This document shows, in pieces, positions 15,256-64,000 of a stretch of DNA of 64,000 nucleotides. Under the pieces are notes generated by a model, which was not told the origin of the DNA, searched no databases, and saw nothing but the letters and a program-made list of their open reading frames with translations. Position 1 is the stretch's first letter, and every line of letters starts with the position of its first letter. The position numbers and the translations under genes were made by a program. The stretch lies in IMG/VR virus record IMGVR_UViG_3300045988_149609; one strand, given 5' to 3'. The stretch comes from a virus.

Positions 15256-15273
15256 TATATAAAATAAATAAAA

Positions 15274-17296: not shown

Positions 17297-17303
17297 GTTA
17301 AAA

Positions 17304-17345: not shown

Positions 17346-17347
17346 TA

Positions 17348-17355: not shown

Positions 17356-17377
17356 CAAAGAATTTAATGTAAATGAA

Positions 17378-17641: not shown

Positions 17642-17642
17642 T

Positions 17643-18431: not shown

Positions 18432-18455
18432 TATTTAATTAAAAACTATAATAAT

Positions 18456-18575: not shown

Positions 18576-18576
18576 T

Positions 18577-18981
18577 ATGTATAATAAAGTATGGTATAAA
18601 ATATTTTTAATAATCTTGAAATATATTCCTGCTATTATTACAATATTTTATGTATTAAATACTTTTCTGTCTTTTGTAGGTATAGATACTTTCTGGATGA
18701 GTTATGTTTCAGGAATATCTATACTTACTTGGATATTTTTATATGTATCTAGTTTTGTTTTTAATTATTGTATTTATCATAGATTATTCTTATATTATAT
18801 AGCTTTAAATGATATAATAACAATAATAGATTATCATTACAAAATACCTATTAAAAATGAAACTTTATTTATGTTACATAGTATTTTATTAGGTATTTTT
18901 ATTATATTAATTGTAATTAAATATGTTACAAATCATAAAAAGAATACTACTAAAAATAGTAGACAATATAGATTCAGGTAA
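18577..18981 (+). CDS. Multi-pass membrane protein (3-4 TM); holin candidate
   Basis: Hydrophobic helices IFLIILKYIPAIITIFYVL, ISILTWIFLYVSSFVF and LHSILLGIFIILIVI. It heads a lysis-like cassette. An alternative start is at 18550. Confidence 0.35.
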   Translation: MYNKVWYKIFLIILKYIPAIITIFYVLNTFLSFVGIDTFWMSYVSGISILTWIFLYVSSFVFNYCIYHRLFLYYIALNDIITIIDYHYKIPIKNETLFMLHSILLGIFIILIVIKYVTNHKKNTTKNSRQYRFR

Positions 18982-18988
18982 TTCTAAT

Positions 18989-19249
18989 ATGACTTCTTCA
19001 GATCAGTTGAAAATATTAGAAGTGCTAAAAGAATATACAGATAAAGAAGTAAGACTTAGTAAATATCAAGCTTGTAAATATATAGGATTAAGTAGAGCTT
19101 TTTTTGATAATTATGCTAGATTTGGTTCTTTACCTAAAGGTATAAAACAACAAGGATTTAAAGAATTATTTTGGACAAAGAAATCTTTAGATAAATTTCT
19201 AAAGGAAAGAGAAAAGAAAGAGAAGAAAAAAGAAAAGAATAACGTATGA
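18989..19249 (+). CDS. Small putative HTH DNA-binding protein (AlpA/excisionase-like)
   Basis: LSKYQACKYIGLSRAFFDNYARFGSLPKG resembles HTH_17 / AlpA motifs. The start is chosen at the internal ATG after the upstream stop. Confidence 0.3.
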   Translation: MTSSDQLKILEVLKEYTDKEVRLSKYQACKYIGLSRAFFDNYARFGSLPKGIKQQGFKELFWTKKSLDKFLKEREKKEKKKEKNNV

Positions 19250-19638
19250 AATATTTTTATGTATTCATAGTTTTACTTTTATGTATTAGTTGTAAAACTA
19301 AATATCAATGTGTAGAAGTACCAAAGGAAATAATAAAAGTTGAGTATAAAGATAAATTGATACATGATAGTATTTATAATATAGATAGTATTTATATTAA
19401 AGAAAAGAATGATACAATTTATTATTTTAAAACTAAAATTCAATATAAATATAAATATATTAAAGATACTATTTTTAATACAGATACTATTAAAACTACA
19501 ACTATTAAACCAATAGAAGTTACAAAAGAAATAGTTACAAATAAAATTAAATGGCATCAAAAAATCTTTATGTGGTTAGGAGGAGTATTTATGTTATTTA
19601 TAATATATAAATTAACAAAATACATTAAGAGAGAATGA
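19246..19638 (+). CDS. Putative lipoprotein with N-terminal signal/lipobox-like Cys and C-terminal TM helix (spanin-like)
   Basis: N-terminus MKYFYVFIVLLLCISCK. C-terminus IFMWLGGVFMLFIIY. Confidence 0.3.
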   Translation: MKYFYVFIVLLLCISCKTKYQCVEVPKEIIKVEYKDKLIHDSIYNIDSIYIKEKNDTIYYFKTKIQYKYKYIKDTIFNTDTIKTTTIKPIEVTKEIVTNKIKWHQKIFMWLGGVFMLFIIYKLTKYIKRE

Positions 19639-19955
19639 TTGATTTAGGTGTAATAATTACAGCTTTAGTAGGAATAATGACGAGTGGTGCTACAAGTTGG
19701 ATTACTTGGTTTCTTACTAAAAAGAAATATAATGCAGAAGTTGATGGAGCATTGTTAGATAATATGAAAGAATCACTTAATTTTTATAAAGAATTAAGTG
19801 AAGATAATAAAAGAAGATTAGAAGATGTTTTGGATAGAAACAAACAATTAGAAAAGGAAGTTTCAGATCTTCGTAGACAAGTTACAGCAATGCTTAGTAC
19901 AATATGTACAGATTTAACTTGTATGCATAGAATAAGTAAAAATTTAGAGGATTAA
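19635..19955 (+). CDS. Type II membrane protein with N-terminal TM and coiled coil (i-spanin-like)
   Basis: N-terminus LGVIITALVGIMTSGATSWITWFL followed by a heptad coiled coil. ATGA overlap with the upstream gene. Confidence 0.35.
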   Translation: MIDLGVIITALVGIMTSGATSWITWFLTKKKYNAEVDGALLDNMKESLNFYKELSEDNKRRLEDVLDRNKQLEKEVSDLRRQVTAMLSTICTDLTCMHRISKNLED

Positions 19956-19959
19956 ATAA

Positions 19960-20439
19960 ATGAAAATTGTTGTAGATAGAAAATATAAAAAGTCAACATA
20001 TACAATAAGTAATCTTACTATTGATGGTAAATGGTTTTGTAATGTTGTAGAAGATACAGATAGAAATTTAGATAATACAATGTCTGTTACTCACATACAA
20101 AAGGTTAAAGATGTTAATGGTAATGGTGTAAATGATGATGCAATTACTGCAATACCAAGAGGAACATATAAAGTTACACTTGATGTAGTTTCTCCTAAAT
20201 TTAGTAAAAAGGATTATTATAAAAAGTTTTGTAATGGTAAAGTTCCTAGATTACTCAATGTACCAGGTTTTGATGGCGTTCTAATGCATTGTGGATCTAC
20301 TGCTAAAAGTAGTGCTGGTTGTTTAATTTTAGGCTATAATAAAATTAAAGGTGGAGTTGTTGATTCACAAAAAGCTTTTGAAACAGTATATAAGGAATTA
20401 TTAAAAGATAAAAATAATATCACAATTGAAATTAAATAA
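19960..20439 (+). CDS. Putative peptidoglycan-active enzyme with YkuD-like (L,D-transpeptidase fold) His…Cys motif; endolysin candidate
   Basis: LMHCGSTAKSSAGCLILG resembles the L,D-TPase signature H-G-x(n)-S-x-G-C-[IV]-R. Last gene of the lysis-like cassette. Confidence 0.3.
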   Translation: MKIVVDRKYKKSTYTISNLTIDGKWFCNVVEDTDRNLDNTMSVTHIQKVKDVNGNGVNDDAITAIPRGTYKVTLDVVSPKFSKKDYYKKFCNGKVPRLLNVPGFDGVLMHCGSTAKSSAGCLILGYNKIKGGVVDSQKAFETVYKELLKDKNNITIEIK

Positions 20440-42595: not shown

Positions 42596-44470
42596 ATGAT
42601 ATTTAATATAAATAGTACATTTAAACCATTCACATTTGAAGATTTTGCTAAGCCAATGATTATGTATAAGCAAGCATATGAAGATATGGAAAAAAACATA
42701 GCTACGCTTACAGATCAAACAGAAATGTGGAAAAATATAGCAGAACAAGAAAAAAGTCCTGTTGCTTATAATCTTTATAAAAGTTATTCAGATAAATTAA
42801 ATTCTGTAGCTGAAGATTTTAGTAGAGGTATGTCTATGTCTAATAGAGGAGAATTATTAAATTTAAGAAAAGGATATGCTACCAATATAGTACCTATTGT
42901 AAATGCTTACAAAAGAAGGCAAACTTTAATAGATGCTGCTCAAGATGCTGCATTAAAAAATCCAACATTAGAATTTCAATATGATCCTCGTACAATGTCA
43001 CTTGATGATGTAATAGCAGATCCAAATAAAACTTGGGGTAATGTTATTAATGGTGCATTGTTAACAGAGCAAGCTGGTAAAATGGCAGCTAATTTAGCAA
43101 GAGCTGCACAAAGTGGAGATAAAGATGCACAAAAACAACTTGAACAAATACTCCCTTATCAGTATGAATATATTAAGAAAACAGGTTTTGATTATTCAGA
43201 AGTAGTAAGAGCTATAACAGATCCAGAACATGGAGCTGAAGCACTTACTAGGATTATTGATACTGTAATGGCAGGAAGTGGAATTAATGATTGGACAAAT
43301 CTTAAAGATGCAAATGGTAATTTTACTAAAGAAGGCTTAGCTAGATATAAGAAAATAAGAAGTTATGCAGAACAAGGTTTATATAATGCAATAGGTCAAG
43401 AACAAACTCAAATACTTAAAGATGATTTTGGTGCAAATGTGGCAATGAAACAATATGAAGCACAATTCGCAGCAGCTGCAGCAAATGGTGATTTACCTGA
43501 AGAAACATTAATGGACACTGACACTTTAACTTTTTCTACTGCAGAAGATGATGTAAAAGAAAGAGATGAAGCTGCTAAATTATTAGGATATAATACAGAT
43601 ACTAAAAAATTTGGAAATTTTGTGACTGTACGAATTACTGAGCCTTCTATTACGAGTTCTACTACAGGTACTACTCTTTTTAGGGATTATTATAAAACAA
43701 TAAGACTATGGAATACAAAAAATGATCGTCTTGTAAGTAAAAAGGAATTTGTAGCACAAGGTAAAAATAATCATGAAAAACAAGTACTTTCTAATTATTA
43801 TGATCGTGCTTTTAAAGCAGCAGGTACATGGAATTTACATACTTCACATCGTACTGAAAAACAAAATATTTTTATGGGATTGGAAAAAATAAAAAGAGGA
43901 AATTATGGAATAAAAGCACTTAAATATAATACAGATGATAATGTAGCTGTTATTGCTCCTTTTGTTAATGCAGGACAATTAGTAGAAATACAAGGTATGG
44001 ATTCTAAAGGTAATCTTAAATTTAATAGCCCTGGAGTTAATCATGCAGTCGGAATATCGCAAAAGGATATTCAATCATTTAATCAAAGATCTGATCCAGA
44101 TAAAGGAAAAGCAACTTTAACTAGTGGTCAAGTATCAATTCATATTTTACCAGGAGATTCTAAACGAACTGATAATAAAGGTATTGTTATTTCATTTCCT
44201 AATGCAGATGGTAAAAATAAATGGTATTTACTTCGTCCTCAATCAATGAGTGATAATGTTAAATCAGCATTTATTAGTTATAATCAAGCTGTGATTAAAG
44301 CAAAAGAAAATGCAAAAAAGAGTAAATTAAATGCTGAACAAACGGAACGATATATAAAACAAGTAACAGTACAAGAACTTTCAGCATTTATTCGTATATT
44401 TAATAATTCAGTAAATAATAAATACAGTACTACAAGTGTAAGTACTTATGATAGTTCTAAAGAAAAATGA
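42596..44470 (+). CDS. Hypothetical virion protein (624 aa)
   Basis: ORF only. Confidence 0.45.
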   Translation: MIFNINSTFKPFTFEDFAKPMIMYKQAYEDMEKNIATLTDQTEMWKNIAEQEKSPVAYNLYKSYSDKLNSVAEDFSRGMSMSNRGELLNLRKGYATNIVPIVNAYKRRQTLIDAAQDAALKNPTLEFQYDPRTMSLDDVIADPNKTWGNVINGALLTEQAGKMAANLARAAQSGDKDAQKQLEQILPYQYEYIKKTGFDYSEVVRAITDPEHGAEALTRIIDTVMAGSGINDWTNLKDANGNFTKEGLARYKKIRSYAEQGLYNAIGQEQTQILKDDFGANVAMKQYEAQFAAAAANGDLPEETLMDTDTLTFSTAEDDVKERDEAAKLLGYNTDTKKFGNFVTVRITEPSITSSTTGTTLFRDYYKTIRLWNTKNDRLVSKKEFVAQGKNNHEKQVLSNYYDRAFKAAGTWNLHTSHRTEKQNIFMGLEKIKRGNYGIKALKYNTDDNVAVIAPFVNAGQLVEIQGMDSKGNLKFNSPGVNHAVGISQKDIQSFNQRSDPDKGKATLTSGQVSIHILPGDSKRTDNKGIVISFPNADGKNKWYLLRPQSMSDNVKSAFISYNQAVIKAKENAKKSKLNAEQTERYIKQVTVQELSAFIRIFNNSVNNKYSTTSVSTYDSSKEK

Positions 44471-44471
44471 T

Positions 44472-47400
44472 ATGGCAACAACAAATAAAAAAATTCAAGA
44501 AACAGGCCCAGTAGGTTTAAAAGGTGTAAGAGGTGAAGATTTATATCCTAAAGGATTTAAAGGAGAACAATTACAAATAAGTGCTGCAAGAAATAAAGCT
44601 GCATTAAGAACAAATGTAAATCCTACATTGTTTGATAATATAGGTATTGCAGAAAAAACAAATGACACACAGCAAGGTAAATCAATGTTTGATGATGCTG
44701 TAATGATAAATCCTACTCCAGAAACAATTCAAGATACTAGAGCTAATAATCAGCCTTGGTATGCACAATTAGCAGCAGGTGTAGGTAAAGGTGCAGTATT
44801 AGCAGGTACTACTTTTGTTGATGGAACATTAGGTATTATTGCAAGTCTTGGACAAATTATAGCAAATAAAGTACAAGATGCTAATGGGAATCCAATGACT
44901 ACAGGCCAAATATGGAGTGGCTTTTATGACAATCCTATCACAAGAGCTATGAATGATATAAATAAATTGTCTGAAGAATTGATGCCTAATTATTATTCAA
45001 CACAAGAAGAAGGCAAAGCTTTTGATTTTGGTTCAATGAATTTTTGGGCAGATAAAATTATTAAGAATATAGGATTTACTATAGGTGCATCTTGGTCAGG
45101 TGCTGCTTGGTCAAGACCTCTTTCTTTATTAGGTAAAAGTTTAGCTGAAAGTACTAAATTTAAATCAATGCTTAATATTACTAAAGAAGCAAGAGATTTA
45201 GCAACAAAACAAGGTAAAATAACTCAAAATTTAGTTAGTTCTTCTGTACAAAATGGTTTAGGTGCTACAATGTCAGCTTTAAGTGAAGGTAGTATTGAAG
45301 CACTTAATACTAAGAATGATTTTATTAGTAAAAAAATACCTGAAATACAAGAGCAAAGAGATCAAAGAATTAGATATATTAGAAAAAAATATGGTAATTC
45401 AAAAATGGCAGAAGATCTTATAGCTAGAGAAAATAAAGCTTATAATGCAACAGTAGAAAAAATTAAAGAAGATGCTGCAGCTGCAGGTAATGTAGATTTA
45501 TTAGTTAATATTCCTATATTAACTGCATCAAATATGATTCAATTTACTAGATTATATTCAGGTGGATTTAAAAAAAGTCTTGAATCTTTAAAAGTTAAAA
45601 GACTTGCAGATGGTACTTATGATATAATGAGTAAAGCTAAAGCTGTAGCAAAAGCTGTGTCTAAACCAATAATATCTGAAGGTAGTGAAGAAATATTACA
45701 ACAATATGCTTCTGATGTTCCTACTAACTATTATAACACAGATGTAAATAATTTTTATAAAGCTAAAACGAACAGACAAAGCGAACAAGAAGTATTAAGT
45801 TGGAGTAAAGCTTTAGGTGAACAATTAGCATTAACTTTTGGTAGTGCTGATACTTGGGAACAATTTTTTATTGGTGGTTTGACAGGTCTATTAGGAGTTC
45901 CATCTTTTATAAAAACTAAAGCTAATGGTAAAATGGGCTTTGGTCTAAGTTGGCAATCTGAAGCTATTTCAGGAGCTAAAGAAGCAGCTAAAAAAGCAGC
46001 AAGATATAATTATTTATCTGCTTATATGAATGCTAGAATTGCTAATAATGAAAAATTTAAAAATTATTATCAAGGCTTGATTAGAAATAATACTTATGCT
46101 AAAGCTATGGATGCAGCATTAGAACATAATGATAAAAAAGCTTTTCTTGATAATGATTTAGCTCAACTTTATTCTGATTTTACAATGTTTGATTCTGCTG
46201 GTAGACTTGATGATTTACGAGCAATGGCTAAAGCAGCAATACCTACTTCTGATGCAGATGTACAAGATTTAATTGATAATACTTCTACTAAAGATTTAAA
46301 AGGAGAAGAGAAAGAAAAAGCAGAAAAAGAAAAAGAAAATTTAAAACAAGCTACTACAAAAAAAGAGCAAATAACTCAACAAATACAAGAGTTATTAAAT
46401 GAAAGAGAAGAAAAAGATTTAATACCTGAAGAAAAGCTTAAGCTTGATAATTTTAAACAAGAATTAAATTCTGCAGAAGAAGAAATTACTACAGCTAAAG
46501 CTAATATTAAAGATATATATGATAAATCAAAAGAACCTTGGAGAGGGCCATATATTAAAACAACAGGTGAACAAAAATCTATTGAAGAAGTTAAAGAAGA
46601 ATTAAATAAAAATGTAAAGACTTTTACAGATCATCTTAATCGTTATCAAGAAATTAAAGATGATGTAGAATCAATATTAAGAGGAAGATTAGATTCTCCA
46701 GAAAGAGAAAAAGATGTTGTTTCAGAATTAGTATTTAGAATTGCACAATCAGAAAATTGGAAAAATCGTAGTGATGAAATTCTAAATAAGTATAGAGAAA
46801 TATTCCCTGATTCAGAAGAAAAAGATAGTTATCTTGCTCAATTACAAGAAAAAGGTTCACAATTAGATGATGTTCTTGAAAGTATCAATGAAGCAAAAGA
46901 AAAGTATATTGCATATGCTAAAGCTAAAGCAGAACGAGAAGGAAAACTAGATTCTTTTGATGAAAGTAAAGTACAATTTCCTAAAAGTATAACAGAAGTT
47001 GAAGAACGATATAAAAAAGCAAATGATACAAATGTAGCATTAACAAATTCAGCTGCAGCTTTTAGAAAATTTAAAGCTTCAACAAATGAAGAAATAGCTA
47101 ATTTATTATTAACAGATCCAAATTTTAAACAAGGATTTGCAAATTGGATTTTAAATACAGATAAAATTCCAGCAGAGAAAAAAGATGAGTATATTGCTAG
47201 ATTAAATGACGTAGAAAAAATGTTAATATCTAAGCAAAATGCTAGTATAGCTATTGCTAAATATTTAGAAGATCCTAATACTTTAGCTCAAGAACAAGAA
47301 AAAGCAGATGAAAAAAATAAAGAAGAAGTTGCTGAGGAAAAACATAAAGAAGTAGTTGAACGATTAAGAAATGCAACTGTTTCTGATATTAATAATGCTA

Positions 47401-50400
47401 AAGCAAATGGAGAAGATATTTTTTCTGGAGTTAGAGAAGAATGGTTAGAAGAAGGAGATAAAGAAAAAATAAAAACTGCAAATGATGTAGAAAAAGTAAA
47501 AAATCTATTACTTAAAAGATTGCAACAAGCTTATGAGAGTGGTAAATGTTCTAAGATGTATTATGATTTATTTAGTGATGCTATTCAAAGAAACTATAGC
47601 AAAGCAAATAGTGTAGAAGAAATGTTAGATCCTTCAAATGAAAACTATGTTGAAGCAATAGAATCAAATGAAAATATTACAAATGATGATGTAGATGCAG
47701 CTTATCAAGTACTAAATGATGTTATAAATGTAACACAAGAGGATATTGAAAAAGCACAAGAAGTAAAAGATTTTGGAGATAGTATAGAAGGAACAACTGA
47801 CGCTCTTACTATAAGTTTAGATGATGAAACAGAAGGTGAATCAAAAGCAGAAGATAAAGAAAAAGATAAAACTAAAAAACCTAATACTGGCTCAACTTCT
47901 GCAACAGAAACTAAAACTAAAGCTAAAACTAAAACTGATAAAAAATCTGATGAAACAAATGGAGAAGAAGCTTCAGCAGGTAAAGATCCTGTAACTCAAC
48001 CTAAACCACTTAAATTTCCTACTTGGCAATGGCAGTTGTTAGAAACAGGAGCTGTATTATCTGAAAGTTCTGTACAAAGTATTGTTGAAAATCCTACATT
48101 TGTCAAATTTGATTATTATGATCCTTTGACAAAAAAATTAAAATGGTCAAAAGGAAATAATATGTTTAGATGTCCTAATGGTTATTATCTTTGTTTTATA
48201 AAAATACCTAAATCAAATGTAGTAGTTCCTTTCTTAGGTTATAGTAATGGAAAAGGCCAGTTAGAATGGAATGTTGCTGTAAAAGTAGATCTTAATGATA
48301 CTTCAAAATGTTTATGTGTAAATTCTGGAGATATTTGTGCAGAATTAGGACAAATTGCATATGCAATGAGTAAAAGATGGAGTAATACATCAGTAGCTGC
48401 AAAAAGAGTTCTTGAATTAAATGATAATTTTACAAGAAATGTAATTCAAACTCAGATGTTAGATAATATGGAAAAAAGTGGCATTGATTATGCAGACTTA
48501 TATTTAAATCGAAAAGAAGATGAAGATATAACTTATGCTTTAAATAGTGCATTTGTACCATATAAAAAAGTTTTAGATGAAGCAGTAATGAAAGCATATC
48601 ATTCAACACTTAAATCTAATACTTTTGATGAAACTTCTTCTAACACTGTACAAAATGCTACAAATATTTCATCTGAAGATTTAGAGAAAGAAATAGAAGA
48701 TAATAATAAAAAATCTAACGCAGTTGCTAATTCACAGCCAACTCCTGATAATCCTATTACTTCAAAAAATATATATGAATTTTGGAGAGATTCTACAACA
48801 GAATATAAAATACATAGAGATAGAGGAGATGATCATCCTTATTGGGAAACAAGTGGAAATCCAGCACATAAAATTTTATTTGAATATTTACAAAAAGCTG
48901 GAGTTTTTGATAGAAGAAAAAATACACCTGTTGAAGATATTCCACAATCATTTAAGTTATCTTTTGACCAAAAATTAAATGAACAATTAGGATTTCCTGT
49001 ATTATTATTAACAGATGAAGATGGTAATATTTGGGGAGATATACCTAATCCTAAAGATGCTACTTTTAGTAAATATAGAGGATTACAAGAGTTTTATAAT
49101 AAAGCTATTGAAGAATACAATCAAAATAAAGATAATATAAAAAATGGTTTTTATACATTAAAAGATGAGATAACAACAGCTGGTATATTAATTGGTACTC
49201 CAAGATATTTAGCTACAGGTGAAAGATATACATTAAATGAAATATGTAGCACTAAAGATAGTTCAGGTAAAAGAGTTACTAAAAAAGGAGGGCCTAAAAT
49301 AGGTATCATGGTTAATGATGAATTAAAAAGTGGTTGGAATATGCGTATTAGTGGTAATGAAAAAAGAGACACTGCTATGAGTATGCAAGAGAAAAAAATA
49401 CTTCCTCCTTTGACTTATAGAAATGGACAACCTTTCTTATTAATTGAAACTTTAGATCCTAAAAGAAGATATTATCCTGTTCCATTTACTATGAAACCTT
49501 TTAGTGTAAAAGATAATTCAAGATTAGCTAATGCTGTAAAAACATTATTTGATAAAAATAATTTACCTAAAAATCAAAGTGAAGCTAATACCTGGGCAGC
49601 TACATTAAAACACATTTTAGCTTTAGAAAATGTTGAAACATTCTTTAAAGATGGTAAACTATTATCTATAAGAGTTAAATCATTTAATGCAGAAAAAGCA
49701 ATAAATGTACGTACTGTAAAAGATCTTGAAAACATTCCATTTAATATAGATACTTCTTTAGTAGGACTTAAAGTAGGTAATGCTGAAGATGAAATTTTTA
49801 GTGGTTTACTTACAAAAGAAGTTGATTATAATGAATTAATTGGTGAAGTTGCAGAAACAAATTTACCTCCTAGTGCAGATAGAACAATAAATGATAGTAT
49901 TGTAATAAATCCTATTATAAATGGTAAATCAACTGCAGCAAAAATGCCTCAAGGAAAGACTAAACAAAAAGAGGCAGCAAATAGTGAAACTGATACTTCT
50001 AAAAAAGTAACAGATATTACAGAAACTGATATAAAAACTGATACTCAAGTTGAACTAAATAATAATGATAAGGATTGGTATTATTCAGATAACTATCCAG
50101 TCTTTGCAATTAATACTAAAACAAATGCTGTATTAAATAGAGCTACACATAAAGTATATACTGTTGAAGAAGCATCAAATCTTAATATTATTCTTAAAGG
50201 TAATATTGCAAGAGTTTATATTGAAGCTAATAATTTAGAAGCTACAGGTAAAACTATTATAGAAACTCCTTATGGATGGTATGATATAAAAAATGGTAAT
50301 TTTGTAGCAGCACCTGTTGAAACACCTAAAGCAAAACAATCTTCTTCCACTGAAACTATTAGTGAAGATAATACTGACTTTAATGTAGATACTGCAAAAG

Positions 50401-51329
50401 AAACTCTTAAAAAACTTGTTACAGATCCTGTTATTAGAAGTAAAGTTATTGAAAAATTAAATGTTGCTTCTTTACAAATTCTTATTGAATTACCATCAAT
50501 GAAAGCAAGAGGTATTTTAAATAGTTTGAAAACAATGTGGAGAAATAAAACGCCTGAACAATTAGAGGAATTTATTAAAACTGCAAAAGCTAAAATGAAA
50601 TTAGTAGCAGATACTAAATTTGAACAAGCAGATTTAGATAAGGAAATTAAAACTTTAAACAGAATGCTTCCTCAAATAGATATAAATGATTCAGTTAGAA
50701 TAGTTAAAGGATTAATTAAAACAGTTGATGGAGATGCTTATGGTAAATTCTATAAAGGTATTATTACTTTATCTAAACAAGCAACTGTAGGTACAACTTA
50801 TCATGAAGGATTTCATTATGTTGTTAATACTTTATTTAATCAATCAGAACGTGATGCTTTATTTAAACACGCTAAAGCTTTATATGGTGAAGAAAATGAA
50901 GCTCAATTAGAAGAATTAATGGCTGATGAATTTAGTAAATATGTACAAGATAGAGAAAATAAAGTTGTAGATAATGAGCAAAATCCAATTAAACGATTCT
51001 TTAAAAAATTATGGAATATTGTTTCTTCAATGTATAGACATAAAGCATATGTAGATTCTGTTTATAGAAATATCTATAATGGTAAATATGCTAATAGAAG
51101 TATTATAAGAGAACAAGAAAAAAGTAGAAGAAAACAATTAAAGGATAAAACATCAAAAGTATTAAATAATATTAAAACTCCAATTAAAAGTTATTATAAC
51201 AATAAGTATAAATATGAAAATCTTTCAGTAGAACAACAGCAATATCTACAAGATAGAGGTATTAATCTTAAGGATTATAATAATATGAATAATGAAGAAA
51301 AAGAAGTATTATTTAAATGTATGAATTAA
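44472..51329 (+). CDS. Giant coiled-coil virion protein (~2285 aa) with C-terminal HExxH (zincin-like) motif; tape-measure or ejected-protein candidate
   Basis: Start at ATG 44472, 1 nt after the upstream TGA. Hydrophobic GVGKGAVLAGTTFVDGTLGIIASLGQII near the N-terminus. Long K/E-rich heptad regions. YHEGFHYV at 50802-50816. Confidence 0.5.
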   Translation: MATTNKKIQETGPVGLKGVRGEDLYPKGFKGEQLQISAARNKAALRTNVNPTLFDNIGIAEKTNDTQQGKSMFDDAVMINPTPETIQDTRANNQPWYAQLAAGVGKGAVLAGTTFVDGTLGIIASLGQIIANKVQDANGNPMTTGQIWSGFYDNPITRAMNDINKLSEELMPNYYSTQEEGKAFDFGSMNFWADKIIKNIGFTIGASWSGAAWSRPLSLLGKSLAESTKFKSMLNITKEARDLATKQGKITQNLVSSSVQNGLGATMSALSEGSIEALNTKNDFISKKIPEIQEQRDQRIRYIRKKYGNSKMAEDLIARENKAYNATVEKIKEDAAAAGNVDLLVNIPILTASNMIQFTRLYSGGFKKSLESLKVKRLADGTYDIMSKAKAVAKAVSKPIISEGSEEILQQYASDVPTNYYNTDVNNFYKAKTNRQSEQEVLSWSKALGEQLALTFGSADTWEQFFIGGLTGLLGVPSFIKTKANGKMGFGLSWQSEAISGAKEAAKKAARYNYLSAYMNARIANNEKFKNYYQGLIRNNTYAKAMDAALEHNDKKAFLDNDLAQLYSDFTMFDSAGRLDDLRAMAKAAIPTSDADVQDLIDNTSTKDLKGEEKEKAEKEKENLKQATTKKEQITQQIQELLNEREEKDLIPEEKLKLDNFKQELNSAEEEITTAKANIKDIYDKSKEPWRGPYIKTTGEQKSIEEVKEELNKNVKTFTDHLNRYQEIKDDVESILRGRLDSPEREKDVVSELVFRIAQSENWKNRSDEILNKYREIFPDSEEKDSYLAQLQEKGSQLDDVLESINEAKEKYIAYAKAKAEREGKLDSFDESKVQFPKSITEVEERYKKANDTNVALTNSAAAFRKFKASTNEEIANLLLTDPNFKQGFANWILNTDKIPAEKKDEYIARLNDVEKMLISKQNASIAIAKYLEDPNTLAQEQEKADEKNKEEVAEEKHKEVVERLRNATVSDINNAKANGEDIFSGVREEWLEEGDKEKIKTANDVEKVKNLLLKRLQQAYESGKCSKMYYDLFSDAIQRNYSKANSVEEMLDPSNENYVEAIESNENITNDDVDAAYQVLNDVINVTQEDIEKAQEVKDFGDSIEGTTDALTISLDDETEGESKAEDKEKDKTKKPNTGSTSATETKTKAKTKTDKKSDETNGEEASAGKDPVTQPKPLKFPTWQWQLLETGAVLSESSVQSIVENPTFVKFDYYDPLTKKLKWSKGNNMFRCPNGYYLCFIKIPKSNVVVPFLGYSNGKGQLEWNVAVKVDLNDTSKCLCVNSGDICAELGQIAYAMSKRWSNTSVAAKRVLELNDNFTRNVIQTQMLDNMEKSGIDYADLYLNRKEDEDITYALNSAFVPYKKVLDEAVMKAYHSTLKSNTFDETSSNTVQNATNISSEDLEKEIEDNNKKSNAVANSQPTPDNPITSKNIYEFWRDSTTEYKIHRDRGDDHPYWETSGNPAHKILFEYLQKAGVFDRRKNTPVEDIPQSFKLSFDQKLNEQLGFPVLLLTDEDGNIWGDIPNPKDATFSKYRGLQEFYNKAIEEYNQNKDNIKNGFYTLKDEITTAGILIGTPRYLATGERYTLNEICSTKDSSGKRVTKKGGPKIGIMVNDELKSGWNMRISGNEKRDTAMSMQEKKILPPLTYRNGQPFLLIETLDPKRRYYPVPFTMKPFSVKDNSRLANAVKTLFDKNNLPKNQSEANTWAATLKHILALENVETFFKDGKLLSIRVKSFNAEKAINVRTVKDLENIPFNIDTSLVGLKVGNAEDEIFSGLLTKEVDYNELIGEVAETNLPPSADRTINDSIVINPIINGKSTAAKMPQGKTKQKEAANSETDTSKKVTDITETDIKTDTQVELNNNDKDWYYSDNYPVFAINTKTNAVLNRATHKVYTVEEASNLNIILKGNIARVYIEANNLEATGKTIIETPYGWYDIKNGNFVAAPVETPKAKQSSSTETISEDNTDFNVDTAKETLKKLVTDPVIRSKVIEKLNVASLQILIELPSMKARGILNSLKTMWRNKTPEQLEEFIKTAKAKMKLVADTKFEQADLDKEIKTLNRMLPQIDINDSVRIVKGLIKTVDGDAYGKFYKGIITLSKQATVGTTYHEGFHYVVNTLFNQSERDALFKHAKALYGEENEAQLEELMADEFSKYVQDRENKVVDNEQNPIKRFFKKLWNIVSSMYRHKAYVDSVYRNIYNGKYANRSIIREQEKSRRKQLKDKTSKVLNNIKTPIKSYYNNKYKYENLSVEQQQYLQDRGINLKDYNNMNNEEKEVLFKCMN

Positions 51330-51340: not shown

Positions 51341-51375
51341 AAAAAGGTGGTAGAAAATATCTATCACCTTTTTTT
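51341..51375. terminator. Bidirectional intrinsic terminator between convergent gene blocks
   Basis: A5 – GGTGGTAG – AAAATAT – CTATCACC – T7. Confidence 0.55.
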
Positions 51376-51392: not shown

Positions 51393-54300
51393 TTAATAAG
51401 AAGCTTTACCATAAAATTGAATAGATGAATCTAAATCATTTAAAAATCTATCCATCTTTTTATAATTACTTATTCCTGGTACAGGAAGTTTCCAAAATCT
51501 ACTATATAAAGTACTATGTCCTTCAAATGGGCCACTTTGTTTTTCATCTAACCAATAAGGAGGATACATTGCTGCCCACATAAAATTGATAGTATTATTT
51601 ACAGCTGAAATACAAGCTGCTGGACTCTTTAATGTTGCAAGCATTTCGTTACCCATTGTTAAAGATGGAGTTAAATTACCTAATTCATGAGTACTTTTCT
51701 TTGCTAAATATTCTGCAAATTTAATAAACCATGAACGATTTTTATCATCAGGCCATTTAATTAAACTAGCAAGACACCATACCGCTGCAAATTGAACTAT
51801 TTCAAACAATCCACGTTTTACATTAGCTTTTTCAATATCAGAAAGTTTACTCCAATTTAAAGCTAATGCATCTTTACCTTTTACTAAATCAATTAATAAT
51901 CTACCCATTGTTCTATAATAGCCTTCTTCCCACTCACCAGTATCAAGATTTTTTTGACCTTTCATAAATCTTTTATTAAACTGTGGTTTAATCCAATTTC
52001 TATATTGTAAGATTAATCTACCTGCAATAACTTGTTTTGCTGCATTTTGATCATCTTCATTATAAATACCAAACAATGATTGATTAACATGAGCTATTTT
52101 TCTAGCAAAAGATTTAGCAGTAATTGATTTACCATGTTCATCTGTAAAACCATCATCAAGTATCATTTTCTTGATACCTTCTCCAACATCAATTATTTTA
52201 AGATTATCCCAAATAGAACCCATATCTTTACCATCTTTATACAAATGTTGTTTTTTACACATAGCTATTGCAGTTCTATTATATAACCAATGATCGCCAC
52301 ACTCTTGTCCTAAGTATGCTAATCTTGCACCAAAAAATCTTTTAAACGCACTAGTTGATTGATTCTTTATTGAAGATTTAAAGTCTTGTTTTACATCAAA
52401 CAATTCATCAAATAATGATAATTTACTTGTTTGAATCCTTTTACCTAATTCAGGTATAAAATCTTTAAGCATTGCTGTATAAGCTCCATCTGCTGAAGCT
52501 AAAGTTTTAACATTAAAATATTGACCTGCTGCAGCTTCAATATTTTGCATACCAATACCTGTAGTGACATTTGTAATATTAGCTAACCAATGAAAACCCA
52601 TTTGAGCTAAAGATGTCATTTTTAATAAAAGAGAGGTTGCTTTATTGTTATTTATTTTTTTACCAGCGATTTCTGTAAATCCTGCATCTTTTAAATGTTT
52701 TCCATAAACTTGACTTGCCATTAAATCATCAAGTTTTTTATCAATATTTGTACCACTAGGATGTATAATATCATTAATAAAAGTATTACCGAGACCTGTG
52801 ACTACTTCATGAAGTCCACTATTACCTCTTGTTACTTTTACTTCTCTATCATGTAATATTTGTCTACCTACTTCTAATTGATCTATAATATTATCTAAAT
52901 GTTTATAATTTGTAGCAGCTACAGCATAACACATTAAACTTTTAAATATATCTGTAGAAAGTTCATCAGTATTTTTTAATTTATTTGTATAAAGAACAGG
53001 CATAACCATAAACTCTTTACCTTCAAAATCAGTTAAACCTTTTCTTACATTAGAACCAAATATTTGATCATCATCTTCACTTTCTAATACAGCACTTGCT
53101 AAATTTTCTTTAATATTAGATAATATTGAAGATGGTGAAGAAATTGAATCAAAAAATCTTTGAACACCATCTTTTCTTATTTGAATAGCTCTATTAGCAT
53201 AAACTCTATTAGGAGGATAATTACTATCTAATTTATTTTTAATTTTCATAAATTTATCAAGTAAATTTCTTTGTGTACTTGATAAAGATGAAAATGCTGA
53301 ATTTTTATATCTTTCGTTTGGTATTCTTGTCACTTTAATTGAACCATCAGATTGTTCTTCTTTTAATTCTTTTGTATGTGTTTTTAACCATTCTTTTTTC
53401 TCTTTTATCTTTTCTTTAGCTTTATCTCCTGATGCATTCTTTCCATATTTTTCATCTAAATTATCTAACATTTGTTGATAATCTTTTTCATATTGTCCAT
53501 AATTATATTCACTAATATAATTACCTGTTTTTTTACCTGTATTATCAACTTCAAACATCCATTCAAAATTCTTAATTCCAGCATTCTCTGCTTTTTTCAT
53601 AAGAATTTGTATTTCTTTAATAATATCAATAGCTTCTATACGTGCATCATCTTTTGCGTTTTTAATAAGTTTATCCATAGTTCTAAGCATAATATCTGAA
53701 CTATCCCCTAAACTATCTAGCCATCTATCTAATAAAGAAATATCACCTTCTGCTACTTTAAGTAATGTTTCAATAGGAACTTTAGAATTAGGATCATTCA
53801 TAATAGTTTGTACACTATCACCTAATATAGGTCTAATAAATTCAGCAAAAGCAGGGAGAGCTTTTTGTTGATATTGATTTGCTATTTTTTTAGATAAAGT
53901 ATTTAATTTATCAACTAATTCACCTAAACTTATTTCATTAACATTACCAAAAGCATCTTGTGAAGTAATCATAGTTTTATAAGCTTCATTTTCATTACTT
54001 TCCATTACAGGATTACCATAATCATCATATTCATCAGTACTATGTGTATTATTAACAATATCATTAAGTGATTTAATTAAAGGTACATAAGAAGCAAGAG
54101 AAGATCTTATACCTCTTAATTTATTACATACAATTTTTAAATCAGAATTTGTACCTGTATTTAAGTCAATTAAAAGTTGATGTGCATATTTTAAATCTTC
54201 AACTGCACTTAATGCATATGAACCTAAATTTTGTATTAAATCTGCAGTATCAGTAGAAGATGAAGCAGCTAAAAGTTTATTTATTTTTGTTTTTAAGGCA

Positions 54301-55442
54301 GCATTATTTTCATTACCTAATATTTTCCATCTTTTAGTTTCATTATTAGCAGCTTTCTTTAATGTTTCTGCCATTACTTTAACTTCATCACTAAGTTTAT
54401 TAAATTGTATATTTTCTCTTTGAAGATTTGATATTTCATGTTCTGTTAATGTTATTTTATTAACTACATTTTTAGCAATATCACTTGTTATATTATTAAC
54501 TTCATTTAATACACTAATGATAGCAGTAGCATCTTTATCTTTAAATTGATTTCTAATACTATCTAACATTCTATTGAATAATGCTGAATTGGCACCATTC
54601 ATTTTTTGAGCTAATATGTTACTTTCTAAAATTTGACCTAAAGCTTCTTCAGCAATTACTTCATCAATATCGTCTCTATAATCATAAAATTCTAATAGTT
54701 CGTTATATTCTTTTTCTCCTAAAATACTTACCACTAATTTTTTATTATTAGTAAGTAAATTTAAAGCTCTCTGAACTAAAGGATTATCAGACATTGCTCT
54801 AATAATTAAGTGAGAAAATTCTTCACTAATTGCATTATGTCCTTCAATATTATTAGCTCTTCTAATAATAGCTACAGTATCATTTGCTAAATTCTTTGCA
54901 GTTCTTAAATCAGTAACTCCCAGTCTACCAGCATTAATTTCAACATCTGTAAGATCTTCTATATCAATACCCATACTTTCTAGTTGAGATGCTAACTCTT
55001 TATTAATTTTGAATGAACCATATTGATCTGTAAATCTTTGTTCATTTTCTTCAGTTCTATCCAAAACTGTAGTTCTAATCCCATCTTCTGTATAGTCAAC
55101 TATTGCTACAAAATCTTCATTTTGTTGATTAAATTGTTGTGCTTCATTCAAACATTGTTCATAATTATAAATTGTATCTTCTTTACTTTCAAAAGCATTT
55201 TGATATACTATTTTTTGTCCTTCTTTACCAATATAATTTTTAATATATTTATTTTTAAGTAAAGATTCAAAAGTAGGGATTCCCTCTCCATCAAAAGAGA
55301 GAGAATCCTTATAATCATTTTGAAATTCAGGACTAATAGCTATACCATATATGTTCCAAGCCATATTATAACCTAATGATGATTTGAAACTTCTAAACAT
55401 TTTAACTCCTTTTTTAGGAGCAATTACACATGATTTAGCCAT
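51393..55442 (-). CDS. Giant protein (1349 aa) co-transcribed downstream of the RNAP gene; ejected/RNAP-associated partner candidate
   Basis: 4-kb ORF on the minus strand, 19 nt after the RNAP gene stop. No motif recognised. Confidence 0.5.
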   Translation of the reverse strand: MAKSCVIAPKKGVKMFRSFKSSLGYNMAWNIYGIAISPEFQNDYKDSLSFDGEGIPTFESLLKNKYIKNYIGKEGQKIVYQNAFESKEDTIYNYEQCLNEAQQFNQQNEDFVAIVDYTEDGIRTTVLDRTEENEQRFTDQYGSFKINKELASQLESMGIDIEDLTDVEINAGRLGVTDLRTAKNLANDTVAIIRRANNIEGHNAISEEFSHLIIRAMSDNPLVQRALNLLTNNKKLVVSILGEKEYNELLEFYDYRDDIDEVIAEEALGQILESNILAQKMNGANSALFNRMLDSIRNQFKDKDATAIISVLNEVNNITSDIAKNVVNKITLTEHEISNLQRENIQFNKLSDEVKVMAETLKKAANNETKRWKILGNENNAALKTKINKLLAASSSTDTADLIQNLGSYALSAVEDLKYAHQLLIDLNTGTNSDLKIVCNKLRGIRSSLASYVPLIKSLNDIVNNTHSTDEYDDYGNPVMESNENEAYKTMITSQDAFGNVNEISLGELVDKLNTLSKKIANQYQQKALPAFAEFIRPILGDSVQTIMNDPNSKVPIETLLKVAEGDISLLDRWLDSLGDSSDIMLRTMDKLIKNAKDDARIEAIDIIKEIQILMKKAENAGIKNFEWMFEVDNTGKKTGNYISEYNYGQYEKDYQQMLDNLDEKYGKNASGDKAKEKIKEKKEWLKTHTKELKEEQSDGSIKVTRIPNERYKNSAFSSLSSTQRNLLDKFMKIKNKLDSNYPPNRVYANRAIQIRKDGVQRFFDSISSPSSILSNIKENLASAVLESEDDDQIFGSNVRKGLTDFEGKEFMVMPVLYTNKLKNTDELSTDIFKSLMCYAVAATNYKHLDNIIDQLEVGRQILHDREVKVTRGNSGLHEVVTGLGNTFINDIIHPSGTNIDKKLDDLMASQVYGKHLKDAGFTEIAGKKINNNKATSLLLKMTSLAQMGFHWLANITNVTTGIGMQNIEAAAGQYFNVKTLASADGAYTAMLKDFIPELGKRIQTSKLSLFDELFDVKQDFKSSIKNQSTSAFKRFFGARLAYLGQECGDHWLYNRTAIAMCKKQHLYKDGKDMGSIWDNLKIIDVGEGIKKMILDDGFTDEHGKSITAKSFARKIAHVNQSLFGIYNEDDQNAAKQVIAGRLILQYRNWIKPQFNKRFMKGQKNLDTGEWEEGYYRTMGRLLIDLVKGKDALALNWSKLSDIEKANVKRGLFEIVQFAAVWCLASLIKWPDDKNRSWFIKFAEYLAKKSTHELGNLTPSLTMGNEMLATLKSPAACISAVNNTINFMWAAMYPPYWLDEKQSGPFEGHSTLYSRFWKLPVPGISNYKKMDRFLNDLDSSIQFYGKASY

Positions 55443-55461: not shown

Positions 55462-58400
55462 TTATTTTAAATCTTCCATATCTACACCTAATTTAGTAAG
55501 ATTTACCATTTCTGCCATATTTATTCTATTTTTCTTAAAATCTTCAATTCTTTTTTGAATTTCTGGACTATATTTTTTACCAGCTGGTGCAGGACAAGGT
55601 TTCATATCTTGTTTTTCTAATTCCTCTTGAGGTTTATAATCTTTTAGTTTTTCTTCTTCAATTGTAGTTTCAGGTGTTTCATTTGCAAAAGGATCTTCTA
55701 TTTTTAATTCATCTTCTGTTGAATTATTAAGAAAAGCAAAATCTTCTTCACTTTGCATACCAGAAACAAATCCATTTTGAGTAGCAAGATTTAATGCTGT
55801 TTTCAAATTAGGATTTACTGTTCTATTATAAATATCATTTACTGTTTCAGAACTATTATAATAATCCAAAGTTTTATTGTTTATTTCATCATGTTCAACA
55901 TCATGTAAAATTATATATTTTGGATGCTTAGAAAATTGAGTATTAGGATCTAATCTTACATTATAATTTGTTCCCATTGCATCAACAAGAGTCATATATT
56001 CAAAATATCTATGTCTATCAGTTCTATAATTAATTACAGATGCTGCGTTATCAGGAATAAACATATCACCATGTCTTGAAAATCCTTTTACAGATCGTTT
56101 AGTAACAAATTCACCTAAATGATTAAACATGAATTGAGCAAAAAACTTTCCATCTATATCTACTAAATGATTATCTATATTTCTTAAAGTATCAATATAT
56201 TCAGGGAAACTACTTAAAAATTGAGTACTAAAGAAATTACCAAAACTATTATGACTAAACTTAAATCCTTCTTTATAATAAGCATATTTAAATAAATCTT
56301 CAGCTAATTTTTTAGCTTTATCATTACCATAAAGTAAACTATCAAAATCACGCATAAATCTATTTCTTACATCTTCTGTAACTCTACCTGATTTATCTAA
56401 AACTATTTCTCCATTATTAACTCTTAATTTATTTAAAGCACCTAATTGAAATACTTCTTTTAAATCAGGATCTGTTTGCATTTTTTGTAAATCAGCTGGA
56501 AATTTATATAAGTAATAATTACGCTTTTCTGCAAAAGTTCCTTCTTCACTATCACCAAACATTTTAGATTTAGTTAATTCATAAATGATATAACTATCCA
56601 TAAAATCTTGAATTGTTGCTGTTGGTAGATTATAATTAGCACTTTCTTCAAAAAGATAATTTAATGCTAATTGAAAACTTTCACTAGTTTGTGTAAATAA
56701 ATCTCTCATTACAGTAGGTACTGAATTAATACCTAATGAATAAAATGCTTGTAATTTAGCTAAAGGAGATTCTTGTAATTTAGTTCTAATTGTTTCTAAA
56801 TCTCCAAAAGGATTTATAAGATCATCTTGAATTAATTGTTCAGCATTATTTAATGTAAATTCAGGTTGTTGTGCTTTATAATTAAATGCTTTTAATGCTT
56901 GTTTTTGTCTATACATTTCAGCAAGAGTAATACCAACTGAACCATTAGGTGAATCAGCTCTACCTAATTGAGTAACAGTTCTTAAATCTTGTGCTGCAGC
57001 TTCAATTTCAAGTAAAGGCCCAACTAATTTATTCATTCTTGCTATTACTGAAGACATTAATACTAAATCAGTATTTACATCAGTTTTAATATCTATATTC
57101 TTATATAAATTATAATAAAATGTAGCTTCTCGCATTGTATCAGAATCAAAATTAAAGTCAGAACTAGGTATACTATTAGATATACTTAAAATTTGTTCTG
57201 TTAATTCTTCAATCATTTTATTTGCTTTTACTTTATCAATGCTTGAATCATTTTCAGCAAGTTTATTTATTTTAGCTTTAGCTGCTTTAATTGCTAATAG
57301 CTTAGGTAAATCTTTTATTGTTTTAGCATCAATCAATCCATAAAGATCAATAATATCACGAAAACCAGGTAGATTAAATACAAGAGATATTTCTTCTGAA
57401 GTCATACCAGCACATAACATAAAACAAGTAATATATGCTGTATTTGGTGTTTGTGCTAATCTTGCTAATACAGGGTCTTTTACATTATCTACTGAAGCTG
57501 CACTAAATTCAGCACATAATTTTGAAATTCTTATTGTTTTTCCTTCAACTGTAGTATAAGCATCATGTAATGATTTTATTGTACGATTATTTATAACAAT
57601 TTCTTTTTTCAATTCCAAATTACTAAATTGTCTTTTTGCTTGACCAACATTGTTATTTGCATAAATACCAATAAGTGATGCACCTGCCATATTTTGTTTA
57701 TGAAAATAAATAAAAGTTTCCATTGATAAAGGATCAAATGTTTTCTTATTCTTTGATAAGAAATCTTCAACTTCATCTAATGTGGCTTCTTTAATACTTT
57801 TATTTAAAGCATTAACATCACTTGCAAATGAATTATAGACTGCTGCACCATCTTCATCATTTTGTATATTATTTAATTCTTCAATAAAATTAGTATTAAT
57901 TCCATGTGCTTTTGCCCAAGCATTTAATAGTTGCGGATCATTTACTATATCTGTTTTATAAGCATCTGTTTTAATGGTATCATAACCACCAGGACTCATT
58001 ACTTGATCTCTTATTTGAGGACTTCCCCAAACTTTTCTATATAAATCAAGTAACATATTTTCTCTAGCTTGTCTGCTATTACCTGCTACTCCTTTTGACC
58101 AATCATATTCATATGTTTTATATTTGCCATCTTTGGTCTTATAATAGTTATAAAATTGTAAAAATTTCTTATCAATATCAAAATCTTCACCTGCATAAAC
58201 AATTGTATCAGCAGGCATCATTATAGTTGAACCATTTTCTTGAGGTAAAAATCCTTTAATTATAAATGACATCATTGAATATTTACCTTCTGTTGGTATA
58301 CGATAGCCAAATCCTTCGAGTAGTTTAGGATCATTTTCCTTTACTTTTTCAATATCTATTTTTTTACCAATAACTTTACCATCATCATCTAAAACATCTA

Positions 58401-64000: not shown

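Follow-up and report, generated by a model that had tools for sequence, protein, structure and literature searches.

The window analyzed here, a 64,000-nucleotide stretch of viral DNA (IMG/VR record IMGVR_UViG_3300045988_149609), ends inside a very large minus-strand gene. The window holds the 3' 2845 codons of this gene plus its stop (55462..64000, minus strand), and the frame that ends at 55462 is open for all 2845 codons up to the window edge, as the first-pass annotation had noted in describing a minus-strand protein of more than 2845 aa. The first 302 codons lie outside the window. A contig identical to it (L003; 0 mismatches in 22.6 kb) carries the complete gene at positions 538-9981, which gives a full length of 3147 aa, and in that contig the small genes upstream of the large gene share its strand. 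Residue numbers given below as window aa refer to the 2845-aa part of the protein that the window encodes. The long open reading frames of the window under code 11 speak against an alternative genetic code, and in this respect it differs from contigs L011, L012, cr109_1 and cr130_1, which use an alternative code.

The surroundings of the large gene are those of a Crassvirales transcription gene block. Beside it on the same strand is a gene for a 1349-aa protein (51393..55442, minus strand) that is 32% identical from end to end to the RNA polymerase (RNAP)-associated cargo protein gp49 of crAss001, itself 1349 aa long, so that the partner proposed earlier is indeed a conserved one. On the opposite strand is a gene for a 2293-aa protein (44448..51329, plus strand) that is 29-31% identical to crAss001 gp47, another RNAP-associated cargo protein, in its N- and C-terminal regions, and that has a conserved HExxH motif (HEGFH, nt 50802-50816). 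The gp47-like and gp49-like genes converge on a 63-nt gap that contains a 14-bp hairpin (51341..51373) with an A-run on one side and a T-run on the other. On either strand, this hairpin folds far better than shuffled sequences do (z = -5.4 and -4.6), in agreement with its earlier description as a bidirectional terminator. Among the neighboring proteins, Pfam models Crass_capsid, crAss_MUZ, crAss_CARG1 and crAss_CARGO2 are matched. The plus-strand products of 2293 aa (the gp47-like protein) and 2169 aa (the muzzle) were considered as candidate polymerases and rejected, since neither has a DxDxD motif.

The minus-strand giant gene very probably encodes the catalytic protein of a crAss-like virion RNA polymerase and is an orthologue of gp50 of Bacteroides phage crAss001 and gp66 of Cellulophaga phage phi14:2. 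In tblastn searches, window aa 583-2628 (56116..62253, minus strand) are approximately 30% identical to the putative RNA polymerase of crAss001, and, across 68-70% of the part encoded in the window, the RNAPs annotated in crAss001 and in many other Steigviridae match at approximately 30% identity. BLASTP segments delimit the same polymerase body. A 47-sequence family profile searched against PDB sequences with hmmsearch matches 6vr4_A, the structure of gp66, at E=4.7e-107 over gp66 residues 714-2113. An AlphaFold model of window aa 1340-2289 (pLDDT 75.9) has 6VR4 as its sole significant Foldseek match (E=2.5e-19), with which it shares its core fold; the next-nearest structure is QDE-1, and the weaker structure matches are mostly to beta-prime/Rpb1-type subunits. 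The Asp-triad region is modelled as a beta-rich domain. Together, these tblastn, profile and Foldseek results support the first-pass reading of a crAss-like single-polypeptide, two-barrel RNAP with a DFDID metal-binding motif.

Several other searches were empty. A phmmer search of PDB sequences with the whole polymerase gave chance matches only, a Pfam search with four large proteins returned nothing for the polymerase, the gp49-like protein or the gp47-like protein, and a PHROGs search gave nothing useful, with a DprA-like match only. With single-sequence searches empty, the polymerase assignment is based on family profiles together with a model of medium confidence. The homologue collection was limited to proteins of at most 1500 aa and held no full-length polymerases, so the modelling alignment was built from fragments and split genes.

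The closest comparison among characterized phages is with crAss001 (Steigviridae, Kehishuvirus), which has the same gene order and orientation as the window. Its gp50 is approximately 30% identical to the window polymerase over approximately 2050 aa, and both proteins have a DFDxD-type motif, DFDID in the window and DFDVD in crAss001. They differ in length (3147 aa versus 2412 aa for gp50), and the window polymerase has an extra N-terminal region of approximately 880 aa and an unmatched C-terminal tail of approximately 215 aa. The small gp48 gene that lies between the convergent genes in crAss001 is absent from the window. In crAss001, the strand that carries gp50 also carries replication genes, which alone could suggest a non-virion enzyme; crAss001 still packages gp50.

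The first-pass annotation held that known crAss-like genomes carry this gene in the same orientation as the virion genes. This is correct for phi14:2 and cr111_1. In crAss001, IAS virus and cr126_1 it is false, the layout there being that of the window: the muzzle, cargo 1, cargo 2 and gp47 genes are on one strand, and gp49 and gp50 are on the opposite strand. A convergent polymerase orientation is thus not unusual. Nor is the lineage, which had been suggested to be divergent, deeply so, since synteny is identical to that of crAss001 and the capsid protein (MCP) is 55-58% identical to those of Steigviridae/Asinivirinae members. Orientation is also a ground for supposing that the polymerase is never packaged and is instead expressed inside the cell along with replication genes. 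The gene does lie on the other strand from the structural block and follows a terminator, with small genes upstream on its own strand, and the corresponding crAss001 strand does hold replication genes. However, crAss001 is identically oriented, and its gp47, gp49 and gp50 proteins have all been detected in virions by mass spectrometry (PMC10172136). Moreover, the polymerase gene adjoins cargo and muzzle genes, and the region has no other DxDxD protein that could act as the virion enzyme. We therefore consider a non-virion polymerase very unlikely.

The catalytic core of the predicted virion polymerase can be mapped by alignment to gp66 of phi14:2 (PDB 6VR4), the experimentally characterized crAss-like virion RNAP, which is 2180 aa long and is encoded in the same orientation as the structural genes. 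gp66 is a DNA-dependent RNAP in which each of the three Asp residues of DFDID is essential, and its published limits place the connector at residues 1095-1238, the bridge helix at 1529-1559, the trigger loop at 1598-1636 and an N-terminal cleft-blocking (self-inhibiting) domain at 196-233 (preprint 10.1101/2020.03.07.982082). Direct BLASTP similarity between gp66 and the window polymerase is confined to two short segments. Alignment at the gp66 boundaries, taken together with the modelled secondary structure, predicts this order along the chain: a beta-like double-psi beta-barrel (DPBB) and, after a connector of approximately 140 aa, a beta-prime-like DPBB, with the bridge helix and then the trigger loop following it.

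The predicted beta-like barrel (DPBB-B; window aa ~1440-1675; 58975..59682, minus strand) aligns by MAFFT to gp66 residues 1011-1095, upstream of the published connector; its limits are approximate, having been derived from an alignment with 23% identity to gp66. Its strands are at model residues 122-144, 188-191 and 330-340, it includes a lineage-specific helical insertion, and K1459, K1483 and K1535 are invariant. The connector/clamp between the barrels (window aa ~1676-1819; 58543..58974, minus strand) aligns to the gp66 connector and is helical in the model. The beta-prime-like barrel (DPBB-A; window aa 1820-1965; 58105..58542, minus strand) aligns to gp66 from residue 1234 to approximately 1400 and appears in the model, at residues 481-625, as one unbroken domain rich in beta structure. 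Within it, NKKGAAC is at window aa 1820, YMPW at 1853, GYRIPT at 1898 and DFDID at 1939. The last of these, at window aa 1939-1943 (58171..58185, minus strand), is the predicted catalytic Mg-binding motif by alignment with crAss-like RNAPs and is the sole DxDxD among the six large proteins of the region. The bridge helix (window aa ~2093-2123; 57631..57723, minus strand) is a 31-residue helix at model residues 754-784, and its LIGIYAN sequence aligns with GVGITAN at gp66 residue 1546, within the published bridge helix. The trigger-loop region (window aa ~2157-2195; 57415..57531, minus strand) aligns to the gp66 trigger loop and includes an invariant VDNxKDP.

This map also bears on whether the protein might have lost catalysis and serve in the virion structure or ejectosome, with only the polymerase fold retained. 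Its divergence is extreme, with 15-19% identity to gp66 in structural alignments, and it has large non-polymerase regions to which no function is assigned. Against this, D1939, D1941, D1943 and the adjacent K1944 are invariant in six aligned crAss-like RNAPs, as are the YRxP, bridge-helix and trigger-loop motifs, which is unlike a decayed enzyme. Loss of catalysis seems even less probable to us than a non-virion role.

Although the earlier identification of a two-barrel enzyme holds, its placement of the barrels does not. The stretch NKKGAAC…YMPW had been taken as the beta-like barrel and matched to RHGNKGV…NPLG of bacterial beta. Instead, it aligns from gp66 residue 1234 onward, which is the start of the barrel that bears DFDID. 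Its Smith-Waterman score against E. coli beta 1041-1120 is 14, below the mean of 19.7 for shuffles. When the family profile was compared with E. coli beta by hhalign, no relevant match emerged at this position. As for the second proposed match, between RIPT…DFDID and RAPT…DFDGD of beta-prime, hhalign places it in the right register, but alone it is not significant (E=0.32), and it is validated only through the crAss-like family profile and the predicted structure. None of the motif pairs scored above shuffles in Smith-Waterman comparisons, and the hhalign comparisons of the family profile with both E. coli subunits, beta-prime and beta, were not significant. Given the alignment at gp66 residue 1234 and the one continuous modelled domain at window aa 1820-1964, both the NKKGAAC and RIPT…DFDID motifs belong to the predicted beta-prime-like DPBB, and the beta-like barrel lies approximately 300-500 residues upstream of DFDID. 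The first-pass picture as a whole, in which a divergent crAss-like lineage has an inverted gene and an active centre made of adjacent barrels approximately 90 residues apart, can be dismissed almost outright: both motifs are where it put them and the orientation does differ from that of phi14:2 and cr111_1, but the first motif falls where the DFDID barrel of gp66 starts and has no similarity to beta, the orientation is that of crAss001, IAS virus and cr126_1, and the MCP is 55-58% identical to those of Asinivirinae.

As a polymerase, then, the gene is a new member of the known crAss-like virion RNAP family and offers nothing new. Its one distinctive feature is the N-terminal extension of approximately 880 aa, which comprises approximately 300 aa without assigned function, then a cpYpsA-type SLOG and a PD-(D/E)xK nuclease domain. 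The SLOG-superfamily domain, of the cpYpsA or "molybdenum-carrier" type (window aa 11-190; 63430..63969, minus strand), has the motifs SGAAEGSD and GGTGYA, and the structure model predicts a Rossmannoid SLOG fold with the glycine-rich loops present. No curated SLOG Pfam model matches it above threshold (one scan gave only DNA_processg_A at E=0.097 and another gave none), and it belongs to a family of more than 800 proteins without a precomputed Pfam domain. The fold was assigned from the structure model because the family profile has no significant match among PDB sequences. The nuclease domain (window aa ~201-458; 62626..63399, minus strand) matches Pfam PF12705 at E=1e-9 to 3e-9 (38-39 bits versus a cutoff of 22), and its VDLL…IYDMK motif is intact. 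It is 44% identical to a domain in the gp49-like protein of IAS virus. Its counterpart in crAss001, at 26% identity, resides on gp47 and not on the polymerase as in the window.

Related extensions carry other domains. In close IMG/VR relatives, the same SLOG domain is preceded by ART-PolyVal or Kinase-PolyVal together with an SF1 helicase, and the cr126_1 polymerase has a NADAR domain in its N-terminal extension. IAS virus has a cpYpsA SLOG domain in the gene that directly precedes the one for its RNAP; BLASTP found no similarity between this "molybdenum carrier" gene and the N-terminal extension, though both have SLOG-type domains. Two giant transcription-block proteins of Suoliviridae, cr130_1 gp79 (5801 aa) and cr109_1 gp53 (4328 aa), resemble the window polymerase in combining DFDID and a homologous SLOG in one polypeptide. 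In these the SLOG lies approximately 800 aa C-terminal of DFDID, whereas that of the window is N-terminal; their genes need TAG as a sense codon and belong to a different Crassvirales family.

The polymerase N-terminal extensions resemble "polyvalent" injected proteins, a term that has been applied to N4-like virion RNAPs such as Klebsiella phage Pylas gp65 (Iyer et al. 2017, PMC5512222). Within the single open reading frame of the window gene are SLOG, PD-(D/E)xK and RNAP domains, as in a polyvalent protein, and its delivery to the host is presumed. As is predicted for the window polymerase, the N4-like enzymes are giant ejected polymerases with accessory effector domains, and residues ~986-1184 of the Pylas enzyme are 34% identical to the window SLOG domain (E=5e-22). 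In contrast, their polymerase module is a T7-like single-subunit enzyme that is unrelated to the two-barrel fold of the window. The eukaryotic two-barrel polymerases of RNA silencing, Neurospora QDE-1 and plant RDR2, are RNA-dependent and are not virion proteins, and their sequence similarity to the window polymerase is undetectable. That SLOG recurs in two classes of ejected polymerase that are unrelated to each other suggests that it is functionally coupled to them. The coupling could lie in destroying or capturing ADP-ribose-derived immune signals upon DNA entry, as has been proposed for viral SLOG and NADAR domains (Iyer et al. 2022). Alternatively, it could lie in DprA-like handling of a single-stranded template.

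By analogy with gp66 and crAss001, the polymerase would be synthesized late in infection and enter the capsid as cargo, along with the gp47-like and gp49-like proteins. It would then be ejected through the tail together with the DNA and would transcribe early phage genes, with the three aspartates serving a Mg-dependent reaction. The SLOG and nuclease domains of the N-terminal extension would enter the cell with it. We tentatively propose that the N-terminus of gp50-type virion polymerases is a loading site for injected counter-defence domains, such that the polymerase may double as a "polyvalent" delivery vehicle.

The virion polymerase described here extends the crAss001-type transcription block (gp47, gp49 and gp50) and its convergent layout to another Steigviridae-like lineage, and it provides a corrected map of the two barrels, bridge helix and trigger loop for gp50-type proteins. 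Across these phages, the three packaged transcription proteins accumulate accessory domains (PD-(D/E)xK, SLOG, NADAR, ART, kinase and helicase), which move from one of these proteins to another. Should such domains prove to be anti-defence effectors that are injected, the crAss-like virion polymerases would join those of the N4-like phages as carriers of "time-zero" counter-defence.

The window belongs to the genome of a crAss-like phage, in which Pfam detects a Crassvirus major capsid protein (E = 2.5e-170) together with the muzzle protein and cargo proteins 1 and 2. The capsid protein shares 55-58% identity with its counterparts in the Steigviridae/Asinivirinae phages cr112_1, cr106_1 and IAS virus and in the crAss001-like PhiCrAssBcn phages. 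The 766-aa product of a plus-strand gene at 773-3073 has a phage-lysozyme domain at its C-terminus (PF00959, E = 5e-6), and eight tRNA genes, for Asn, Pro, Thr, Glu, Arg, Lys, Met and Leu, are clustered at 3941-5488 on the same strand.

On the minus strand, a reading frame with its stop at 55462 is open for 2845 codons as far as the window edge, and in the ORF listing of the window it starts no earlier than an internal ATG (63735). Across the 22.6 kb compared, the window is identical to two public contigs in ENA, each ~101.5 kb long. In one of these, L003 (ERZ27229726 k119_253848), the predicted gene product has 3147 aa; therefore, the window lacks the first 302 codons, and residues are numbered here as window aa = full-length aa - 302 unless stated. 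The other contig, L002 (ERZ28573143 scaffold_73), is otherwise identical and contains a run of Ns inside the polymerase gene, upstream of locus position ~1440. Because of this run, the gene predicted in it has 2756 aa and starts falsely at the internal ATG, just as in the ORF listing of the window.

Searches of PDB and Pfam with the single polymerase sequence produced no match. A tblastn search of phage genomes aligned aa 583-2628 at ~30% identity with the 'putative RNA polymerase' of crAss001 and dozens of its relatives, and a profile made from 47 homologues matched the sequence of the phi14:2 gp66 crystal structure (6VR4) with E = 4.7e-107. When an AlphaFold model covering aa 1340-2289 (pLDDT 75.9, pTM 0.64) was submitted to Foldseek, 6VR4 was the sole significant match (E = 2.5e-19). 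These results bear out the first-pass annotation's proposal of a crAss-like two-barrel virion RNA polymerase. Its identity as a single-chain, two-barrel RNA polymerase of the crAss-like type is well supported, and the protein adds one more member to an already known family; for gp66 itself, the greatest similarity reported is to QDE-1 (preprint 10.1101/2020.03.07.982082). The homologue search with the polymerase returned only proteins of 1500 aa or less, and the identical full-length protein was not among them. The homologue set used seems to lack very long proteins, so that giant-gene families look artificially rare in it.

The strings NKKGAAC, YMPW, GYRIPT and DFDID, pointed out previously in the minus-strand protein, are all present (aa 1820, 1853, 1898 and 1939, respectively), and DFDID is the single DxDxD among the six large proteins at this end of the window. 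It had been proposed that NKKGAAC…YMPW forms the beta-like double-psi beta-barrel (DPBB) and RIPT…DFDID the beta-prime-like one. That barrel geometry is unlikely, and the first motif was assigned to the wrong barrel. In gp66, a connector of ~140 residues (1095-1238) lies between the two DPBBs, DFDID is located at 1361, residues 1529-1559 form the bridge helix and residues 1598-1636 the trigger loop (preprint 10.1101/2020.03.07.982082). A MAFFT alignment of six crAss RNA polymerases pairs the supposed beta-like string, KQKNKKGAACTLVSSFGF, with gp66 KLKTNGGSFIQLSNFGL, beginning at 1234, which is where the connector ends and the DFDID-bearing barrel has its first strand. The AlphaFold model shows aa 1820-1964 as a single beta-rich domain without interruption, whose strands occupy model residues 486-491, 501-503, 509-515, 527-531, 537-542, 556-560, 571-578, 586-589 and 605-610. 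Such a domain has no room for a connector and a second barrel; therefore, both motifs lie in a single beta-prime-like DPBB. Nor can the proposed match of NKKGAAC…YMPW to beta RHGNKGV…NPLG be detected: its Smith-Waterman score falls below the shuffle mean and hhalign against beta finds nothing.

Judging by position and order, our reading would pair AACTLVSS, YMPW, YRIPTE and DFDID with RSVITVGP, CGLP, NRAPTL and DFDGD of E. coli beta-prime; hhalign against beta-prime recovers just the last 50 residues of this pairing at a non-significant E = 0.32. The beta-like barrel maps to aa ~1440-1675, with boundaries inferred from the alignment to gp66 ~1011-1095. Lysines K1459, K1483 and K1535 are invariant in this region, which also has a helical insertion specific to the lineage. 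Further along the minus-strand protein, aa 2093-2123 form a 31-residue helix (model residues 754-784) whose LIGIYAN matches the gp66 bridge helix, and an invariant VDNxKDP (aa 2168-2176) lies within the trigger loop.

The gene adjoining the polymerase downstream (51393-55442, minus strand) encodes the gp49-like protein of 1349 aa, which is 32% identical to crAss001 gp49 over its full length. The plus strand encodes the muzzle (2169 aa), cargo 1 (941 aa), cargo 2 (624 aa) and a gp47-like protein (2293 aa) that is 29-31% identical to crAss001 gp47. Between the convergent gp47-like and gp49-like genes is a 63-nt gap with a 14-bp hairpin that has A and T runs on its flanks and folds far better than shuffled sequences on either strand (z = -5.4 and -4.6). 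The description in the first-pass annotation, with its 1349-aa partner and a terminator-like element between the convergent genes, is thus largely correct. Another terminator-like hairpin (13 pairs and a T-run; 55277-55308, minus strand) falls within the gp49-like gene, in the 5' part of its coding sequence, and is probably a chance match, as two such sites are seen and 0.9 are expected.

In crAss001, gp44 (muzzle), gp45, gp46 and gp47 occupy one strand, and gp48, gp49 (1349 aa) and gp50 (2412 aa) are convergent on the opposite strand, the same arrangement as in the window. IAS virus and cr126_1 share this convergent layout, whereas all three genes are co-oriented in phi14:2 and cr111_1. Thus, both arrangements are already known within one subfamily, and the orientation does not mark a divergent lineage as had been suggested. 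The crAss001 virion contains gp45, gp46, gp47, gp49 and gp50 (PMC10172136). The gp47-like protein has an HExxH motif at aa 2119-2123 (50802-50816, plus strand; TTYHEGFHY), with TTYHEAFHV as its crAss001 gp47 counterpart. [quoted passage not shown]

Full-length residues 1-884 of the polymerase have no counterpart in crAss001 gp50, IAS virus, cr126_1, cr111_1 or gp66, and the same is true of its last ~215 residues. The N-terminal extension has two recognizable domains. The first (aa 11-190, minus strand) is of the SLOG type, matching the PHROG 'DprA-like' family (E = 7e-8) and nothing in Pfam. Its family comprises >800 proteins, mostly stand-alone, ~185 aa in length and none Pfam-annotated, and its homologues are repeatedly fused to ejected polymerases. 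In close IMG/VR relatives, the SLOG domain is inside the polymerase ORF. L010 (IMGVR_UViG_3300045988_162139, 4511-20188) has a 5226-aa stop-to-stop ORF comprising ART-PolyVal, SF1 helicase, SLOG and a DFDVD polymerase, as well as a weak SprT-like match; L009 (6194-18247) has a 2515-aa ORF with Kinase-PolyVal, helicase and SLOG, the DFDVD part following after a single stop. In two other IMG/VR relatives, L011 and L012, no ORF reaches 400 aa under code 11 and TAG occurs at conserved positions inside the conserved SLOG domain, so TAG reassignment is probable in these near relatives of the standard-code window phage.

Proteins of 5801 aa (cr130_1) and 4328 aa (cr109_1) from two Suoliviridae phages have the SLOG homologue ~800 aa C-terminal of DFDID. 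GenBank labels these proteins, cr130_1 gp79 (L019 6778-24183) and cr109_1 gp53 (L020 10210-23196), 'DprA-like DNA recombination-mediator protein'; contrary to that label, they are DFDID polymerases with a C-terminal SLOG domain. Under code 11 they contain 70-74 in-frame stops, and every one of those checked in the SLOG segments is TAG. A SLOG homologue (34% identical to the window's domain, E = 5e-22) also lies at aa ~986-1184 of a T7-type virion RNA polymerase, gp65 of the N4-like Klebsiella phage Pylas (L008 12001-12594). Pylas, with two records, is alone in representing Schitoviridae among the phage-collection matches listed. In other Asinivirinae, domains related to NAD/ADP-ribose occupy the equivalent position: in IAS virus, a different SLOG domain (cpYpsA, PF12694, E = 7e-27) is encoded directly upstream by an 837-aa gene (gp055, L005 4359-6872) that overlaps the polymerase gene start by 11 nt, and in cr126_1 a NADAR domain (E = 3.7e-14; gp003 aa 62-189, L007 5356-7455) is fused to the N-terminus of the gp50 homologue.

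The second domain (62626-63399, minus strand, aa 201-458) is a PD-(D/E)xK nuclease domain (PF12705, 38-39 bits against a cutoff of 22) with VD…IYDMK intact. The corresponding domain is found within gp47 of crAss001 (aa 1715-1889, 26% identical), within the gp49-like protein of IAS virus (aa 512-757, 44%) and as a stand-alone 395-aa protein in cr126_1 (L007 16743-17930, 41%); in the window, neither the gp47-like nor the gp49-like protein has it. This phage-to-phage difference in placement is domain shuffling among virion transcription proteins. Yutin et al. 2021 (PMC7886860) noted PDDEXK domains in large transcription-block proteins, and the window polymerase presents a known theme at a new position.

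For the polymerase, the analysis itself shows homology and fold, a complete catalytic motif set, and conserved partners and genome context. It is unlikely to be a non-virion enzyme, and likewise unlikely to be a dead structural protein. By analogy with gp66 and crAss001, the polymerase would be packed in the capsid together with the gp47-like and gp49-like proteins and would pass through the tail along with the DNA, probably partly unfolded. It would then refold and transcribe early genes, with the three aspartates holding Mg.

Virion-delivered 'polyvalent proteins', N4-RNAP-like ones included, were defined by Iyer et al. 2017 (PMC5512222), and viral SLOG and NADAR domains have been predicted to degrade ADP-ribose-derived immune signals (Iyer et al. 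2022, PMC9503650). Literature text searches found no paper tying SLOG domains to crAss polymerases, which is weak evidence of absence. As a hypothetical role, the N-terminus of gp50 could plausibly serve as a site where injected counter-defence domains accrete. Beyond the known polymerase family, the modest extra is a polyvalent-type N-terminal extension and a recurrent association between SLOG domains and polymerases.
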